The translations under genes and the position numbers were made by a program. DNA of 34,915 nucleotides from positions 1-34,915 of the forward strand of contig CBDVCJ010000002.1 of NCBI GenBank assembly GCA_965372445.1. Direction: 5' to 3'. The notes under the pieces are model-generated. The model had not been told where the DNA came from. It worked only from the letters and a program-made list of their open reading frames with translations, and made no database searches. Of the stretch, positions 6,484 to 30,846 are shown one piece after another (positions within the stretch are counted from its first letter, which is position 1; the number at the start of each line of letters is the position of its first letter). This stretch comes from an uncultured Thermoplasmata archaeon. Lineage in GTDB: Archaea > Thermoplasmatota > Penumbrarchaeia > JAEHCK01 > CBDVCJ01.

Positions 6484-7491
6484 TTAAAATTTTTCAACAA
6501 TAATTTCGCCGCATTTCGTACATTTACCCTTTTTGAGCTTTATCTTGCTCTTGTTGAAGAACCCTCCTCGTTCAATTACTAATTTATTGCAGTTGGGACA
6601 GTATGTATCGCCAAATTTTGGGTGATAGATATTGCCAAGATATACGAATTTCAAACCTGCCTTGGTAGCAATCTTATGCGCGGCCAATAGCGTCTTTTCG
6701 GGTGTCGGTGGTAGATCGGTCATTTTATAGTTGGGATGAAACCTCGATAGATGTAACGGTGTGTCAGGCCCCAATTTTGTCTTTATCCATTTACATAATT
6801 TACGAATGTCGTCGTGATCGTCATTAAGGGTTGGGATGACAAGATTGGTGATCTCTATATGTATTCCAAGTTCACGCGCAAGTTCACAGGTGGCCTTGAC
6901 GGGCCCGAGCTTGCCGCCGCAGATCTTTTTGTAGAAGTTCGGGTCGAATGATTTCACATCGATATTCATTGCATCCAGATAAGGCGCGATCTTTTTCAAA
7001 GGCTCCGGGTTGATGAAGCCGTTGGTCACATAGACTGTATAAAGGCCGTGTTTTTTTGCATAGACCGAGCCCTCGTAAGTGTATTCGAACCAGATCGTGG
7101 GCTCGTTGTAGGTCCAGGCAATACCGTCACAGCCGCGATCACGCGCGGGTTTGACGGCCGCAGAAGGCGCGACCGGCTTCACACCGCTCTCGTCAGGCTC
7201 CGATTGCGAGGTGTAATAGTTCTGACACTGCATACACTTAAAATTACAGCCCAAAGTGCCGAAGGAATAAACATCTGAGCCGGGGTGGAAATGATATAAC
7301 GGTTTTTTCTCGATCGGGTCGACCGCACCGGACGACGTTAACCCATAAATTAAACTGTATAACTTACCGCTATTGTTCATTCGCACACGGCAAATACCCC
7401 TTTTACCTGATGAGATCTTGCAATTATGCGGACATAAATTGCATTGGACTTTTTTGCCTTTTAAGGGTTCCCAAAACATTGCCTCGTGCAT
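6484..7491 (-). CDS. amrS: AmmeMemoRadiSam system radical SAM enzyme
   Basis: N-terminal KVQCNLCPHNCKISSGKRGICRVR. DPIEKKPLYHFHPGS. Radical SAM CNFKCMQC (CxxxCxxC). C-terminal CPNC...CTKCG zinc ribbon. AGGTG RBS. Confidence 0.85.
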   Translation of the reverse strand: MHEAMFWEPLKGKKVQCNLCPHNCKISSGKRGICRVRMNNSGKLYSLIYGLTSSGAVDPIEKKPLYHFHPGSDVYSFGTLGCNFKCMQCQNYYTSQSEPDESGVKPVAPSAAVKPARDRGCDGIAWTYNEPTIWFEYTYEGSVYAKKHGLYTVYVTNGFINPEPLKKIAPYLDAMNIDVKSFDPNFYKKICGGKLGPVKATCELARELGIHIEITNLVIPTLNDDHDDIRKLCKWIKTKLGPDTPLHLSRFHPNYKMTDLPPTPEKTLLAAHKIATKAGLKFVYLGNIYHPKFGDTYCPNCNKLVIERGGFFNKSKIKLKKGKCTKCGEIIVEKF

Positions 7492-7604
7492 TGGCGCACC
7501 TATTCCTTAATTGTATTATAACTACACAAAAGTTTCTATAATTTGGTAATTCTGGTTTGCGGAATGGTTGTGAAATAAAATTCTAAATCCCAGACGCTAT
7601 AAAA

Positions 7605-7777
7605 GGCACAAAGGCACAAAGTGACAGAGGCACAAAGTAAATTGTATGAAAATTAAAATGGGGGGTAGGTACTTTGTGCCTTCGGTCTCGATGTCCAAAG
7701 GACGAGAGACCTCGTGTAAAATAAGAATAATTTGATTGATAGCATATTTTACTCGTGTGCCTTTGGATCTTTGTGCC
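7605..7777. repeat. intergenic word palindrome (E2): GGCACAAA words and their complement
   Basis: ggcacaaa at 7605, 7613 and 7629. Complement ctttgtgcc at 7672 and tgtgcctttggatctttgtgcc at 7756-7777. Inner hairpin ggtctcg...cgagagacc near 7684-7710. Confidence 0.75.
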
Positions 7778-7800
7778 TATTTACGGTTTTATATTAAGGA

Positions 7801-7853
7801 AATTCGCATTTCGGATTTCACTCTTGAGGAGCTTTAATTTTGGGCACCGGGGG
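7801..7853. repeat. copy A (truncated) of the 3' end of the giant surface-protein gene
   Basis: aattcgcatttcggatttcactcttgaggagctttaattttgggcaccgg matches copies B and C. On the minus strand it reads ...PVPKIKAPQE-stop, as copy B does. Confidence 0.8.
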
Positions 7854-7879
7854 TTGCCCCTTCAGCTATCCATTTCAAC

Positions 7880-7895
7880 GTTAATTTTATAAAGT
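7880..7895 (+). promoter_or_regulatory. candidate TATA-like box (ttaattttataaag) for cassette 1
   Basis: About 35-45 nt upstream of the ATG at 7928. cAGGTGG RBS at 7915-7921. Confidence 0.3.
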
Positions 7896-7927
7896 TATAA
7901 AAGAATAAAATTATCAGGTGGAAAAAA

Positions 7928-8146
7928 ATGAAGATCGATGCCTTAAGGGAGCTTTATAAAAATAAATGGCTGGCAATCAAAGTTAGCAGATTCAGTAAAG
8001 ATAAAGTTCCTTTAGAAGGCAGTGTAATTGCAGAAGCTGATAATAGGGAGGAATTATGGAAAAAAGTTCCTCAAAGTAAGAGAAACGCAATTTATATCAT
8101 GTATTCTGGAAAGTATTTAGAGGAAGGATATGCTGCTGCATTTTAA
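7928..8146 (+). CDS. small protein, DUF5678-like (cassette 1, gene 1)
   Basis: 72-aa ORF with RBS. The pattern YKNKWLAIK...VIAEADNREELWKKV resembles DUF5678-type small archaeal proteins (assignment from memory). The C-terminal motif KRNAIYIMYSGK is shared with the cassette 2 small protein. Confidence 0.55.
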   Translation: MKIDALRELYKNKWLAIKVSRFSKDKVPLEGSVIAEADNREELWKKVPQSKRNAIYIMYSGKYLEEGYAAAF

Positions 8147-8242
8147 TGTGGAATTTTCATAAGAGTTCGACTAGATAAAGATGAACCCTTAATAGTTATA
8201 CCCGTTAGTCTAACTGGTAAAGTTGCTAAATATATCGTTAAT

Positions 8243-8545
8243 ATGGCATTGGATACTGGTGCAACTTTTGTTATGATCCCCTGGGATGTTGCTGAACGAT
8301 TGGGTTATGATCCGAAGGGATCTCAAAAGCAAGTATCAATAACAACCGCAAGTACAGTAGAAGAAGTTCCTGTTATTACTATTGAAGAATTCAATGTGCT
8401 GGGTCATTCCATGCGAAATGTTAAGGTAGTGGTACATGACCTTCCCCCCACAAGTCGAGTTGATGGCCTTTTTGGTTTGAATTTTTTAAATAATTTTAAT
8501 TTAAAACTAATGTTCAAGAATGGATATTTGGAATTATCTGATTAA
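8243..8545 (+). CDS. retropepsin-like (clan AA) aspartic protease, cassette 1; homology extends upstream to about 8150 with no canonical start
   Basis: The DTGA active-site motif sits at residues 4-7 of the ATG-initiated ORF. The open frame 8147-8242 encodes CGIFIRVRLDKDEPLIVIPVSLTGKVAKYIVN, which looks like the missing N-terminal strands. It is in frame with the upstream ORF across one TAA. Confidence 0.6.
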   Translation: MALDTGATFVMIPWDVAERLGYDPKGSQKQVSITTASTVEEVPVITIEEFNVLGHSMRNVKVVVHDLPPTSRVDGLFGLNFLNNFNLKLMFKNGYLELSD

Positions 8546-8557
8546 AATTCTAATTCT

Positions 8558-8668
8558 TATTTCACTCTTGAGGTGCTTTGATTTTGGGCACCGGCAGTTG
8601 CTGTGGCACTGTAGACTGCTCTACCACAGTGGACTCTTGAGGTGCAACTTGCGGCTGCAGTTCAACTT
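8558..8668. repeat. copy B of the 3' end of the giant surface-protein gene
   Basis: 8584-8654 is identical (71/71) to 9440-9510. On the minus strand it reads ...QPQVAPQESTVVEQSTVPQQLPVPKIKAPQE-stop. Confidence 0.9.
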
Positions 8669-8761
8669 ATTGCCTTTCAAATAGGAAATTCCAAGAACCA
8701 AATAAACTCCAAGTACCAAATTCGAAATTTATTGCGTCAATATAACACTTCATAATTGAAA

Positions 8762-8793
8762 AAAATATATACCAATAAAGATATTTATAAATA
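8762..8793 (+). promoter_or_regulatory. AT-rich candidate promoter region for cassette 2 (aaaatatatacc / tatttataaat)
   Basis: Two TATA-like elements lie 24-55 nt upstream of the ATG at 8817. aGAGGAG sits at 8797-8803. Confidence 0.25.
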
Positions 8794-8816
8794 TTAAGAG
8801 GAGTAATAGGATAATT

Positions 8817-9035
8817 ATGGTTACTAGAGTAGGTAAGATTACCAAGATCAGCTTTAAGATCAATCCAAATGAAGTAGATCAGATAAAAAAATTGATCAAG
8901 ACCGAATTCCCCAATGAATATAAGATGAGCTATCGGAAAAAAGAACTAACTGTAACCGGCGATTTTTCAAGCTATAAAAAGCGTAATAAAATATTATATA
9001 TTTTAAGTGGTGGCAAAGTTGGGGAGAATGTATAG
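8817..9035 (+). CDS. small hypothetical protein (cassette 2, gene 1), diverged homologue of the cassette 1 small protein
   Basis: 72-aa ORF. C-terminal KRNKILYILSGGK parallels KRNAIYIMYSGK in the 7928..8146 product. Same position relative to a protease gene. Confidence 0.5.
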   Translation: MVTRVGKITKISFKINPNEVDQIKKLIKTEFPNEYKMSYRKKELTVTGDFSSYKKRNKILYILSGGKVGENV

Positions 9036-9354
9036 AGGCGTGGAAGTCAAAGCAAATGGTAGGTCGGCTATTGCAGTTGCATTTGTTGATTCGGGTTGTG
9101 ATGAGACAATAATCAGTGAGCGGTTAGCTAATAAATTGAAACTTAAATTATTTGGTAAATTTGAATCGCTATCCGCATCTCAAACTAAAATTATTGGTAA
9201 ACTCTGCAAAGTAACAATAAAAGATGAAAGAATTCAGGATCTACTGACCGTTGGTGTCACCAATAAACCATTTGAGGACGCCGAAGAACATGGTGTCGAT
9301 ATTATTCTAGGTCATGATTTTTTACAACGGAATAAAGTGAAATTGGTATTTTAA
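9007..9354 (+). CDS. retropepsin-like (clan AA) aspartic protease, cassette 2
   Basis: FVDSGCDETII (D-S-G active-site motif) and GHDFL near the C-terminus. Start is ambiguous: GTG 9007, GTG 9010, TTG 9019 or ATG 9028. It overlaps the upstream ORF in the +1 frame. Confidence 0.65.
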   Translation: MVAKLGRMYRGVEVKANGRSAIAVAFVDSGCDETIISERLANKLKLKLFGKFESLSASQTKIIGKLCKVTIKDERIQDLLTVGVTNKPFEDAEEHGVDIILGHDFLQRNKVKLVF

Positions 9355-9410
9355 AAAGATTCTAGATCCCAAAAAGGCGGATTTGGAAAATTGGGATTTA
9401 TGATTTGTTT

Positions 9411-9528
9411 CGAATTTCGGATTTCACTCCGGAGGATTCTTGGGCACCGGCAGTTGCTGTGGCACTGTAGACTGCTCTACCACAGTGGACTCTTGAGGTG
9501 CAACTTGCGGATGCTGTTCAACTTGAGG
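9411..9528. repeat. copy C: the authentic 3' end (and downstream flank) of the giant surface-protein gene
   Basis: cgaatttcggatttcactccggagg...ttgggcaccggcagttgctgtggcactgtagactgctctaccacagtggactcttgaggtgcaacttgcgg. See copies A and B. Confidence 0.9.
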
Positions 9529-14331: not shown

Positions 14332-14478
14332 TATTCAGCCCCCTTGAATATCATCCTGGCATTCAGTAAAAGAATTAATGATTATTTAATTTTGCTATCA
14401 AATTCAAAAAAAGCGAGCGATCTTCAACTGCAACGCGTTTTTTAGCTTTTTAATGATTTCATAGTTGTGAGCTATTTT

Positions 14479-14732
14479 GAGGTGATAGGAAATAGGTGGT
14501 AGGACATAGGCTTCTCTTCGGGAGCCGGTAGCACCGGGAGTACAGGAGCGTGAACCTATGTCTAATGTTGAAATGCAAATTGGAGTTTGGAAATTTGAAA
14601 TTTGCAATTTTTATTTTGCAATTTGAAATCCTGTTCGTTACTCCCGACACTCCCGTTACTCCCGATACTCCCGAACATTGACATTCCCCAGTAATGTCCC
14701 TATCACCTACCTCCTATCACCTAAATATCACC
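14479..14732. repeat. intergenic nested word palindrome (E3)
   Basis: Outer arms: gaggtgataggaaataggtggtaggacat versus atgtccctatcacctacctcctatcacc. Middle: cgggagccggtagcaccgggagtacaggagcg versus cgttactcccgacactcccgttactcccgatactcccg. Centre: aaatttgaaatttgcaattt-ttattttgcaatttgaaat. Confidence 0.8.
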
Positions 14733-19905: not shown

Positions 19906-20088
19906 GTCATGAGTCTTGGAGTATCGGAGCCTCGGAGTCTTCAGAGTCCTGAGTCCCCTTTTAGGTGGTAGGTGATAGGTAGTAGGGACGGTTGTCCTGG
20001 GTCCTGACTCCCGACTCCTAACTCCTGGGTCCGGAGTCCCGAAACTTTACTCCTTGGACTCCCTGGACTCTATTGACTCTTGACTGAG
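19906..20088. repeat. intergenic word palindrome (E6), GAGTC/GGAGT words
   Basis: gtcatgagtcttggagtatcggagcctcggagtcttcagagtcctgagtcccc versus gggtcctgactcccgactcctaactcctgggtccggagtccc...ggactccctggactc...gactcttgac. The centre contains aggtggtaggtgataggtagtaggg. Confidence 0.7.
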
Positions 20089-21185: not shown

Positions 21186-21280
21186 ACTTGCCTCCCTTTC
21201 TGAGGTTATTTTGGTAGTGGGGTAATTATAGTTATTAACTTTAAATCTTTTCATTTTTTGTGACGATTTAATTCATTAAA

Positions 21281-21814
21281 AGGATGGAGGATGGTGGCTG
21301 AAGGATGAGGGCTAATGAATTGTGAGCTTGCGGCAATTTTGTCATTATGTAGGATAGATACCCATCGCTACAATGCGTAGGATTGCTATCTATTTGCCAA
21401 ATTGCGTAGGTTTGTCAAAGTTCTAGCCATTGGGCGTGGGACTTGAATGCCTTTTGGTTGATTCGTTGGATTGTCCAATGGTTAATTTAATGCGTGCACA
21501 CTTTTTCTCGGTTGATTCGTGTGGTTATTATTTATTTGAGCAATCCAACACCTTCAGTAATCAAATGGCGCTCCCACGCATCAATCATTGGACGTTAAAT
21601 CCTACGCACAATGGTAAACTTAAGACAATCCTACGCCATCAGGCTATTATATGGCAATCCCACGCATTATGGCATGCCTAAAACAATCCTACACACGTTA
21701 GCAATGCAATAACAGTCCCACGAACTCTCACAACTTAAGCGACCTTTAGCATATTTTGCCAAAGCATCATCACATCTCATAACTTTATTGGCCTCCACCC
21801 TCGATCCTTCAACC
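21281..21814. repeat. ~530-nt mirrored array (E7): 7 boxes TGCGTRGGATT, AT-rich centre, 7 boxes AATCCYACGCA, ~29-nt spacing
   Basis: Left box starts: 21346, 21374, 21403, 21433, 21462, 21491, 21516. Right box starts: 21542, 21570, 21598, 21627, 21656, 21685, 21714. All pairs mirror about ~21535. Outer arms are aggatggaggatggtggctgaaggatgaggg and cctccaccctcgatccttcaacc. Confidence 0.85.
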
Positions 21815-22618
21815 TTTGGTCTTGCTTTTGGTCTTGCCCTTATTCTTGCCCTTATTCTTGCCCTTATTCTTGCCTTTATTCTCGCCTTTGAGCTCTTCCA
21901 ATATCTCATCCACAAATTTCTTAAAATCCTCAAATGAAAGTTCTTTATAGCCATCTTTTTGGGTTATTGTTGCTATTTCCAGCGACATAAAATCGATCTC
22001 ACCTTCGGTGGCTTTGTAAATACCACCCAACCCAAAAGATATAGCTTCCTTGAGACTCATGCCCTCTACATACAGCCCCTCGAGAAAAGGTAAGGCCAGG
22101 TCCCTGCCCGCCCCGATTGCGCCACCTTTATATTTCTTCAATGCACCGCTCGGGTCCGTCTCGTAGAGATGCTTGCCGCGGGAATCCAGCCCGCCGATTA
22201 TCAACGACGTCCCAAAAGGCCGTACTCCGCCGTATTGCGTATAAATCTGTTTCAAATCACTGATCTCCCTCGCCATATCTTTGACACTGATCCTCTCACC
22301 ATACCGAAGACGATATCTCTGGGCTACATTTCTTGCATAACTCACTAAAACTCTTGCATCGGCGACCAGCCCCGAGGAAGCACAGCCAATATTTTTGTCA
22401 ATTTTGAATATCTTATCAACAAAATCAGTCTCTATCAGTTTACTTGAGATCTTACGCTCGACAATCAATAAAATACCTTCATCATATATCAACCCAACAC
22501 AGATCATCCCCTTTTTTACTGCCTCACGTGCATATTCCACCTGGTACATCCTGCCGTCGGGCGAATATATGTGTATTGCCACATCGTAACGTTCTTCACC
22601 ATGGTCATCGTCAAGCAT
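21809..22618 (-). CDS. psmA: proteasome subunit alpha with a Lys/Gly/Asn-rich C-terminal repeat tail
   Basis: YDVAIHIYSPDGRMYQVEYAREAVKKG and the overall alpha-subunit pattern. The tail is ELKGENKGKNKGKNKGKNKGKTKSKTKG. Confidence 0.9.
   Translation of the reverse strand: MLDDDHGEERYDVAIHIYSPDGRMYQVEYAREAVKKGMICVGLIYDEGILLIVERKISSKLIETDFVDKIFKIDKNIGCASSGLVADARVLVSYARNVAQRYRLRYGERISVKDMAREISDLKQIYTQYGGVRPFGTSLIIGGLDSRGKHLYETDPSGALKKYKGGAIGAGRDLALPFLEGLYVEGMSLKEAISFGLGGIYKATEGEIDFMSLEIATITQKDGYKELSFEDFKKFVDEILEELKGENKGKNKGKNKGKNKGKTKSKTKG
21812..21892 (-). repeat. 12-nt tandem repeat (cttgcccttatt-type) encoding the (KGKN)n tail of PsmA
   Basis: cttgcccttattcttgcccttattcttgcccttattcttgcctttattctcgcc, read directly. 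Abuts the right arm of element E7. Confidence 0.85.
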
Positions 22619-22672: not shown

Positions 22673-23018
22673 GATAGGTTATAGGATTTAGGATATAGGA
22701 TATGAATATAGGGACATTGCTGACATAATTGTCAAAGGTCAAAGGTCCAAATCGGGATACGGGAATCGGGATACGGGATTCGATTTATCAATGTATAACG
22801 TAAGAAACCCCGTTCTTTAGGACGGGGAGTTGAAGTCGAGAAAATGGCAGGTCAGATTTTGCATTAAAAGGCGATTGGCTCTGTCCTTTAGGATAGATGT
22901 ATAGATCGTATCATAAAAATGTAATCGAATCCCGAGAAAGGCTTTCGACCTTGGACACTACGACAAATGATATGCCTATTACCTATCTCCTACCACCTAA
23001 ATCCTAACTCCTGACCCC
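22673..23018. repeat. intergenic nested word palindrome (E8)
   Basis: gataggttataggatttaggatataggatatgaatataggg versus cctattacctatctcctaccacctaaatcctaactcctgacccc. gtcaaaggtcaaaggtcc versus cgaccttggac. aatcgggatacgggaatcgggatacgggattcga versus tcgaatcccgag. Central hairpin ccccgt-tctttagg-acgggg. Confidence 0.8.
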
Positions 23019-27542: not shown

Positions 27543-27852
27543 TTTTGATTTGGGGATGGCTCCGTATGGGGAATTGGGAATGGGGAATGGGGCCCCACCC
27601 CCCATATCAAACCGCAGAGGACGCTGAGGACGCTGAAGGCGCTGAATTTTATTATAATATAAGGATTCGAGATTCCAGTTTCGAGATTCGAGGTGACCTA
27701 TGTAAAGGTAAAACGCAAAAGACGAAAAGGACCGCGTGGGGACTCAAATTTAGAATCCAGAATCTGGAATCCAATAGAGAATTCAGCGGCCTCAGCGTAC
27801 TCAGCGGTTAAAAGTGGAGGGGGTTTCGGTTCCCGAATCCCGATACTCCCGG
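27543..27852. repeat. structured intergenic element E9 with termini shared with E10
   Basis: Left end tttttgatttggggatggctccgtatggggaattgggaatggggaatgggg + ccccacccccc. Inner arms gaggacgctgaggacgctgaaggcgctgaatt versus aattcagcggcctcagcgtactcagcgg. Right end gtggagggggtttcggttcccgaatcccgatactcccgg. Confidence 0.8.
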
Positions 27853-30613: not shown

Positions 30614-30846
30614 TTTTTGATTTGGGGATTGTTCCATATGGGGAATGGGGAATCGGGAATCGTCCACCCCCCGCCCTTATGTTAACACGAAGAACACGAA
30701 AAACACGAAATTTAGTAGTGGAAAAAAATTCTTTCGTGTTTTCGTGCTTTCGCGTTAGAAATTGGGGTGGGGGGTTCGAATCCCGACTCCCGAGTAAGTA
30801 CCTACCACCTATCACCTACCACCTAACTCCTACCACCTATTACCAC
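30614..30846. repeat. structured intergenic element E10 (same family and orientation as E9), plus a CCTACCACC word tail
   Basis: Left end tttttgatttggggattgttccatatggggaatggggaatcgggaatcg + ccaccccccgccc. Inner arms cacgaagaacacgaaaaacacgaaa versus tttcgtgttttcgtgctttcgcg. Right end ttggggtggggggttcgaatcccgactcccgag (to 30794). Then cctaccacctatcacctaccacctaactcctaccacctattaccac. Confidence 0.8.

Follow-up and report, generated by a model that had tools for sequence, protein, structure and literature searches.

Pneumococcal BOX elements are modular (A-Bn-C), a direct internal boxB array standing between unlike end modules. Bacterial miniature inverted-repeat transposable elements (MITEs) and intergenic palindromes of the repetitive extragenic palindromic (REP) and bacterial interspersed mosaic element (BIME) types have been reviewed (PMC3184786), and heptanucleotide tandem repeats are documented for cyanobacteria (short tandemly repeated repetitive sequences, STRR) and, as TAACTGA repeats, for Beggiatoaceae (PMC4692102, PMC4679880). 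Here we describe an element from a 34,915-nt stretch (referred to as the window) of contig CBDVCJ010000002.1 of an uncultured Thermoplasmata archaeon. It is a ~530-base imperfect hairpin composed of two head-to-head 29-nt repeat arrays, with a conserved 11-nt core in the repeat unit and a heptamer outer stem. The element spans positions 21280–21809, within the intergenic spacer between the stop codon of psmA and the promoter block of an iron–sulfur (Fe-S) operon, and leaves the promoter block intact. We favour, at about even confidence, its interpretation as a lineage-specific, hairpin-forming, long-period and so far unique member of the clade's family of tandem-repeat palindromes, residing in a hypervariable intergenic slot.

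Comparison with described repeat systems

The element shares with MITEs and REP/BIME palindromes a noncoding sequence, an intergenic location, inverted terminal arms and a long, very stable RNA stem-loop; its presence varies among close relatives, and related modules are dispersed at unrelated loci. At 530 nt it differs from typical MITEs, which measure from under 200 to ~400 bp (PMC3184786), and no target-site duplication is seen, nor is a second copy or an associated transposase known. Its arms are phased arrays of a 29-nt unit instead of simple terminal inverted repeats, and its host is an archaeon. BOX elements resemble it in being modular, intergenic and hairpin-forming, in containing an internal tandem unit of tens of nucleotides and in being probably co-transcribed with their neighbours (PMC3184786), whereas the internal array of the focal element is mirrored and combines a conserved 11-nt core with free spacers. 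As in the STRR and TAACTGA systems, abundant and lineage-idiosyncratic 7-nt tandem repeats, found only in intergenic DNA, make up the outer stem and the neighbouring elements; those systems, however, are mainly direct arrays, while the blocks described here are mirrored and nested and the focal period is 29 nt.

The centromere-like site parC of plasmid R1 consists of two sets of five 11-bp repeats, and the ends of the transposons Tn7 and Mu are multi-site. The putative sites of the focal element resemble such iteron, centromere and transposon-end arrays in being multiple, short, asymmetric, regularly spaced and more conserved than the spacers between them, and boxes of the Tn7/Mu type also occur in inverted orientation; unlike these systems, the focal locus has no rep, par or transposase gene nearby. 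To our knowledge, prokaryotic transposon ends with seven sites in each arm and a strict pitch of 29 bp are not known. The likeness to archaeal oriC, as defined with its origin recognition box (ORB) and mini-ORB repeats (PMC4010727), is one of layout, both showing sets of an asymmetric repeat in opposite orientations about a centre richer in AT. In contrast to these origins, the focal locus lacks an adjacent initiator gene, a real unwinding element and syntenic conservation, and its boxes are many more and more regularly spaced than usual. The palindrome class was not found described for Thermoplasmata in the literature searched, which is not proof of novelty.

Architecture of the element

The element is divided as follows (window coordinates; TRF, Tandem Repeats Finder; MFE, minimum free energy).

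21280–21311, no strand: left outer stem, heptamer (AGGATGG)n; TRF 21281–21307, period 7, 3.9 copies; pairs with 21790–21809 in MFE folds
21312–21345, no strand: left connector, patchy pairing with 21725–21794, with a degenerate box-like CTTGCGGCAAT near 21327 (arm-versus-arm alignment)
21346–21472, plus strand: left array, five TGCGTRGGATT-type boxes starting at 21346, 21374, 21403, 21433 and 21462
21491–21541, no strand: apex, two degenerate boxes (21491, 6/11 matches; 21516, 8/11) and an AT-rich run at ~21525–21538
21542–21724, plus strand: right array, seven AATCCYACGCA-type boxes starting at 21542, 21570, 21598, 21627, 21656, 21685 and 21714; TRF period 29, 4.4 copies
21725–21789, no strand: right connector, longer than the left through arm-specific insertions (gapped arm alignment)
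21790–21814, no strand: right outer stem GGCCTCCACCCTCGATCCTTCAACC, overlapping the psmA stop codon (21809–21811)

The box, cAATCCYACGCA, recurs every 28–30 nt (25 and 26 nt at the apex), about seven times per arm and in opposite orientations in the two arms. A first-pass annotation, made from the letters of the window alone, had described seven plus seven 11-nt boxes of one consensus at this pitch. Their positions, spacing and orientation are reproduced, with a TRF period of 29 in both arms, but only ~10–12 of the 14 are good matches: three boxes are exact, three carry one mismatch, four carry two, three carry three (21346, 21516 and 21542) and one carries five (21491). The extension of the symmetry into the outer arms was likewise correct, position 21280 pairing with 21809 and the right arm running over the psmA stop codon. 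An AT-rich centre is present as described, but it measures only ~16 nt (GC 0.33 in a 60-nt window, against 0.42–0.47 in the arms) and does not amount to an extended unwinding element. The only open reading frame (ORF) within the element, 21430–21681, has no Pfam match.

The repeat pattern is real. Box matches with at most two mismatches number 19 in the whole window, equal to the total expected by chance (17 ± 4); 10 of them are concentrated in 21374–21724, where ~0.2 would be expected, and these are strictly separated by strand. Autocorrelation peaks at a lag of 29 nt in the left (z 3.3) and right (z 5.1) arms and at a lag of 58 nt (z 5.6). The unit consensus obtained by gapped alignment is AATCCYACGCAttatgGCAAnnannnnaC, the spacer holding merely a faint second motif. 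A heptamer substructure that would make the 29-nt unit a higher-order repeat was looked for and rejected, with no autocorrelation at 7, 14 or 21 nt. Box-like strings within the psmA coding sequence (AGCGTAGGATTT in the related locus L001, TGTGTTGGGTTG in the window) are judged to be chance occurrences.

Two other identities were discarded. An assembly artefact is ruled out because the arms are only ~55–60% complementary and hence not perfect copies of one another. CRISPR arrays consist of direct repeats of 24–48 nt with unique spacers, usually accompanied by cas genes; here the core is 11 nt and the period 29 nt, the arrays are mirrored, and no cas domains occur among the scanned ORFs.

Conservation of boxes and spacers

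When the 14 units are aligned on their boxes, mean pairwise identity is 0.68 in the 11 box columns, 0.33 above that of the other columns. A neutral model with a uniform rate, tuned to the same overall identity, yields an excess of 0.09 ± 0.03, and none of 5000 runs went beyond 0.24, which places the observed excess at about z = 7. Every box is therefore held to a common consensus beyond the uniform-rate neutral expectation, and the earlier proposal that conservation is higher in the boxes than over the entire palindrome stands. Box identity is equal between mirror partners (7.7/11) and non-partners (7.5/11), while spacer similarity is specific to mirror partners and spacers within one arm show background similarity only. 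Since spacers are partner-specific and box identity is partner-independent, two signals are superimposed: arm ancestry or pairing, recorded in the spacers, and the maintenance of all boxes at one consensus.

Folding and position of the dyad axis

Comparison with shuffled sequences confirms a hairpin far beyond expectation on both strands (z −5.5 to −8.3 overall). The RNA fold of the 546-nt region reaches −189.6 kcal/mol on the minus strand, which is the sense strand of the flanking genes (z −8.3, 21 G:U pairs), and −179.3 kcal/mol on the plus strand (z −6.8, 13 G:U pairs); folding with DNA parameters gives z −5.5. Ensemble folding gives cross-arm pairing probabilities of 0.7–1.0 for the four best box pairs and of 0.44–0.53 for spacer nucleotides.

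All box pairs had been described as equidistant from a centre at ~21535. The arithmetic is right, but it follows from the single period shared by both arms and would be true in any register; as an axis, 21535 is displaced by spacer complementarity and MFE folding, which place the dyad near 21521. Gapped spacer complementarity in the 21521 register averages 10.3/18 against a background of 8.1 (permutation p = 2e-4), whereas in the 21535 register it averages 8.6/18 (p = 0.15), indistinguishable from background. The 21521 register pairs boxes 21346/21685, 21374/21656, 21403/21627, 21433/21598, 21462/21570 and 21491/21542, of which the first four pairs form in the unconstrained MFE structures of both strands, and imposing the 21535 register makes the fold less stable by 15 kcal/mol (plus strand) or 3.5 kcal/mol (minus strand). 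The best-supported dyad axis thus lies near 21521, one repeat unit to the left of 21535, with the degenerate box 21516 at the apex and the short AT-rich run in the loop; because ungapped counting slightly prefers an axis at 21534.5, it is ambiguous by one unit.

The same spacer in related genomes

The psmA–Fe-S spacer was compared across 12 related loci recovered through protein homologues. The box array is absent from this spacer in every relative found, other palindromes of 85–250 nt being present there. In L001, whose coding DNA is 79–91% identical to that of the window, homology ends at 21267 on the Fe-S side and at 21846 in the psmA tail, and the slot contains 128 unrelated nt with a small hairpin, a run of seven T following directly after the psmA stop. 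L188 has an 85-nt palindrome, (AAGATTC/AGGATTG)n...(AATCCCC/AATCTTG)n, and the contigs of L189 and L190–L193 open within other repeat modules that lie immediately upstream of the conserved promoter. L194–L197, identical across four samples, have in this slot a ~250-nt palindrome whose family, C-run-(AACACGAAR)n...(TTTCGTG)n-G-run, is represented in the window by element H at another locus. Judged by these loci, the slot is always filled by some repeat palindrome and never by the same one, and the box array is confined to the lineage of the window.

Six independent short-read contigs of relatives begin in the repeat spacer upstream of the Fe-S operon (L189 1–96, L190 1–110, L191 1–150, L192, L193 and L198 1–300). 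Intergenic palindromes apparently break metagenome assemblies, with the practical effect that metagenome-assembled genomes (MAGs) are fragmented at intergenic spacers.

Other tandem arrays of the clade have periods of 18, 25 and 34 nt. L190 carries at 1809–1975 (L191 1861–2027) a direct array of five to six units with a 29-nt period, the unit being TATGTAGGAYCCAAAYGTTAACTTGTTAG (TATGTAGGAYCC...), which directly follows the stop codon of the third Fe-S gene and a run of eight T; one inverted unit lies at 2106–2134. Its TATGTAGGA core is visually similar to the focal boxes, but the 12-unit profile built from these gave no match even at E = 10, and kinship is unproven.

Neighbouring palindromes of the window

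Nearly every intergenic spacer of the window, and of this Thermoplasmata clade, carries a long imperfect hairpin in which blocks of 7–9-nt tandem repeats are nested and mirrored, and such palindromes are found in both co-directional and divergent spacers. Besides the focal element they are the following.

148–300 (to ~480): hairpin
7598–7793: hairpin
14473–14727: hairpin
19960–20070: tandem-only block
22675–23013: hairpin
27564–27846: hairpin
30648–30829: hairpin

Seven of the eight intergenic elements, the focal one included, fold at z −4 to −9, with coding controls near 0; the focal value of −7.7 to −8.3 stands beside −4.2 to −9.3 for the other members of the class. Unrelated loci, and related genomes as well, share modules such as (ATGGGGA)n, (GATTCGA)n, (AGGTGRT)n, (TCGGGAG)n and (AACACGAAA)n. 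Elements G and H have 47 nt in common at 89% identity, together with matching right ends, and shorter common runs link the pairs A/G, D/H, D/F and F/H. In 10 of 11 elements, again including the focal one (window A–H, L001 679–834, L188 6–346 and 1167–1241), the 5′ arm is rich in G and the 3′ arm in C, on either strand, the exception being the C-run/G-run family (window H, L194–L197). The focal element has the same type of heptamer outer stem as its neighbours and no common sequence with them.

Searches for a second array

A pattern of two adjacent boxes, slightly relaxed for IMG/VR, was searched in one genome per species from 185,579 species and in Joint Genome Institute (JGI) metagenomes. It returned 48 single hits in random bacterial genomes, 100 metagenome loci and, in the viral contigs, 37 loci, none of which is a second box array. 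These matches are chance singletons, CRISPR repeats containing CAATCCCACGC, coding repeats of 27/30 nt and unrelated iteron-like arrays (L099, L011). Comparison of the element with plasmids and phages by blastn gave no match, and the 12-unit profile, run over 81 kb of sequence from the clade, matched the focal element alone. No second array was thus found in the window or in genome, metagenome, viral, plasmid or phage collections.

Two of the unrelated arrays are described here in their own right. L099, an 82-kb low-GC contig also flagged as viral, contains at 825–975 six direct iteron-like repeats WTTYCCACGCYARAAWTAT at ~28-nt spacing in an intergenic position, and L011, from a Chloroflexota MAG, contains at 7437–7575 tandem 28-nt units, each a small hairpin GTAGGATTGAAATCCCACGCTGATAGAC.

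Origin and possible functions

Of the roles suggested in the first-pass annotation, context best supports the last, that of an extreme case within the class of intergenic palindromes. Like the members of this class, the focal element is confined to a spacer, forms a stable hairpin with mirrored, nested repeat arms and varies in presence between relatives; the family itself is hypervariable and probably mobile. The element may have arisen by tandem amplification of a 29-nt unit, the array then being copied in inverted orientation, or, alternatively, an older heptamer hairpin may have received the whole element at its centre. Such an origin matches the mirrored, nested module order of the neighbouring elements. 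The simplest account of the 11-nt core is that it would be the part recognized by a factor that propagates or binds elements of this kind, leaving the spacers free to differ, and a copy may look degenerate if only the boxes ever mattered. As for transcription, no run of five or more T occurs on the sense strand from the psmA stop to the point where the element terminates, in TTTT, ~20 nt before the conserved Fe-S promoter block. Because oligo-T is missing from this interval, a read-through psmA RNA would carry a ~530-nt 3′ hairpin ending in UUUU, and this hairpin, upstream of the Fe-S promoter, could serve as a 3′ end barrier or insulator.

Several observations weigh against assigning the element to the palindrome family. 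Its modules are not common to other loci, as judged by blastn-short and profile comparison with the other window spacers and the 12 related loci, and its 29-nt unit, containing a core of 11 nt, differs in kind from the 7–9-nt modules of the neighbours. The absence of a second array leaves mobility of the focal element itself without support, and no direct repeat is evident at the outer stem boundaries (TTCATTAA / CAACCTTT), the true ends of the element being uncertain. Box conservation in a single copy is equally explicable by host selection for a binding function. Finally, the asymmetry between G:U and A:C shows no consistent sense-strand bias across eight palindromes.

Because box conservation is the strongest internal signal, a binding array selected by the host is the main alternative. 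In its broader form, which we regard as possible although clearly behind the assignment to the palindrome family, the boxes are binding sites under purifying selection, ~12–14 polar sites at a 29-bp pitch arranged head to head and evolved from or inside a palindrome; the array formed on them would be a new kind of nucleoprotein structure on an archaeal chromosome and could be a roadblock or insulator, a centromere-like site, or a recognition array of hitherto undescribed mobile-element machinery that would also explain the modular palindromes of the clade. A little more doubtful is the strictly host-functional version: a sequence-specific DNA-binding protein would occupy 12–14 phased, asymmetric, iteron-like sites, and the resulting head-to-head complex could be a transcriptional roadblock or insulator separating psmA from the Fe-S operon, an upstream array with a regulatory role or a centromere-like site. 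Unrelated palindromes take the place of the array in relatives that have the same promoter and genes, the box is not above chance at other promoters of the window, scans of the main window ORFs reveal no candidate regulator, rep or par gene nearby, and no other genome or metagenome contig has the array. Set against this are the maintenance of one box consensus irrespective of mirror partner, a pitch kept at 28–30 nt between near-random spacers, an asymmetric box that changes orientation just once, as polar monomer sites would, and a left arm that ends ~60 nt upstream of a promoter block whose conservation is very strong. Mirrored tandem modules like those of the whole class are also the expected product of slippage amplification and quasi-palindrome template switching in situ, and the element could be a neutral by-product of these processes, its boxes unrecognized by any factor; GC-rich cores would nucleate fold-back pairing in any register and be repeatedly copy-corrected. 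The hypervariability of the slot and the existence of several registers within a few kcal/mol on the sense strand agree with such an origin, which is nevertheless unlikely, taking into account that conversion tracts limited to 11 nt would be unusual, that concerted evolution normally homogenizes whole units, yet within-arm spacers remain at background similarity, and that the excess of box conservation is large.

A selected structured RNA is less probable again. The long hairpin would be formed by the 3′ untranslated region of psmA or by a separate transcript, and an RNA-binding protein or a nuclease, for example, would recognize or process it at the 11-bp box duplexes, with phased small RNAs or control of mRNA decay as the outcome. 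The more stable and G:U-richer fold of the sense strand, the lack of oligo-T and the high cross-arm probabilities of the four best box pairs are consistent with this, but pairing alone needs no single box consensus across units, Rfam gives no match, and compensatory changes are undetectable as no homologue exists. Because the G:U bias of the sense strand is inconsistent in the other palindromes, an RNA-level function is not taken as demonstrated. By far the least probable is a replication origin, whether of the chromosome itself or taken over from an extrachromosomal element. The first-pass annotation had named an origin-like layout among the possible roles, and in form the layout does resemble archaeal origins, with inverted arrays of ORB-like boxes around a slightly AT-rich centre. 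Pfam scans of the 25 main ORFs of the 35-kb window identify no orc1/cdc6 or whiP-like gene and no rep or par gene; the AT-rich run is too short for an extended unwinding element; the flanking genes are co-directional housekeeping genes and not an integrated element; and the array is missing from relatives despite synteny. GC skew shows no inversion on the scale of the window, the local flip at the element being produced by the inverted G-rich boxes themselves. These results argue against the origin-like reading.

If the boxes are recognized by a protein, the element would be a natural array of unusual clarity for finding a new DNA- or RNA-binding specificity in archaea, here in an uncultured lineage of Thermoplasmata. 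The class to which we assign it, which differs between genomes with ~90% identical genes while its modules are common across loci, could be a new system for learning how palindromic repeats arise, move and affect archaeal transcription. Should it be no more than selfish or neutral repeat DNA, the finding is an ordinary one.

Flanking genes and other features of the window

The features adjoining the element are these.

Minus strand, gene order: carA, carB, psmA (22618–21809), 555-nt spacer, three small Fe-S genes
21188–21267, minus strand: promoter and 5′ leader block of the Fe-S operon, just outside the left limit of the element
21815–21886, minus strand: 12-nt tandem repeat encoding the K/G/N-rich (KGKN-type) C-terminal tail of psmA (TRF, ORF translation); adjoins the hairpin and is not part of it

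The identification of the flanking genes as psmA and an operon for Fe-S proteins of the twin-arginine translocation (Tat) type, already made on the first reading, agrees with the Pfam scan and translations: psmA matches PF00227, and the three downstream Fe-S proteins have RR-x-F N-termini of the Tat type. The best protein matches of both are labelled Thermoplasmata, the nearest psmA relative being 84% identical. Both genes next to the element are co-directional on the minus strand and lie within a block of uniformly negative GC skew. Scans of the window found no tRNA, and Rfam gave no match at gathering thresholds, only sub-threshold C/D-box noise (E > 2); a scan for sigma-70 promoters and intrinsic terminators is uninformative for an archaeal host.

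The promoter block is 98.7% identical over 76 nt between the window and L001 (L001 1798–1877), although coding DNA is only 79–91% identical, and the ~76–80 nt upstream of the first Fe-S gene are recognizable in all relatives, including L188–L197. This degree of conservation points to a very tightly constrained promoter or 5′ leader.

The psmA protein measures 269 aa in the window, 259 aa in L001 and 251 aa in the L188/L195 group; these length differences, together with the repeat-encoded tail, indicate that repeat expansion extends into coding sequence. Elsewhere in the window, the stretch 7492–9423 is an AT-rich 1.9 kb (GC ~0.34–0.36) without a long gene, which contains a (AAAGGCAC)n palindrome and two ORFs for retropepsin-like aspartyl proteases (8243–8545 and 9007–9354), and at 2083–2335 an in-frame, P/E-rich tandem repeat of 48 nt × 5.3 lies inside the gene for a 757-aa TPR protein.

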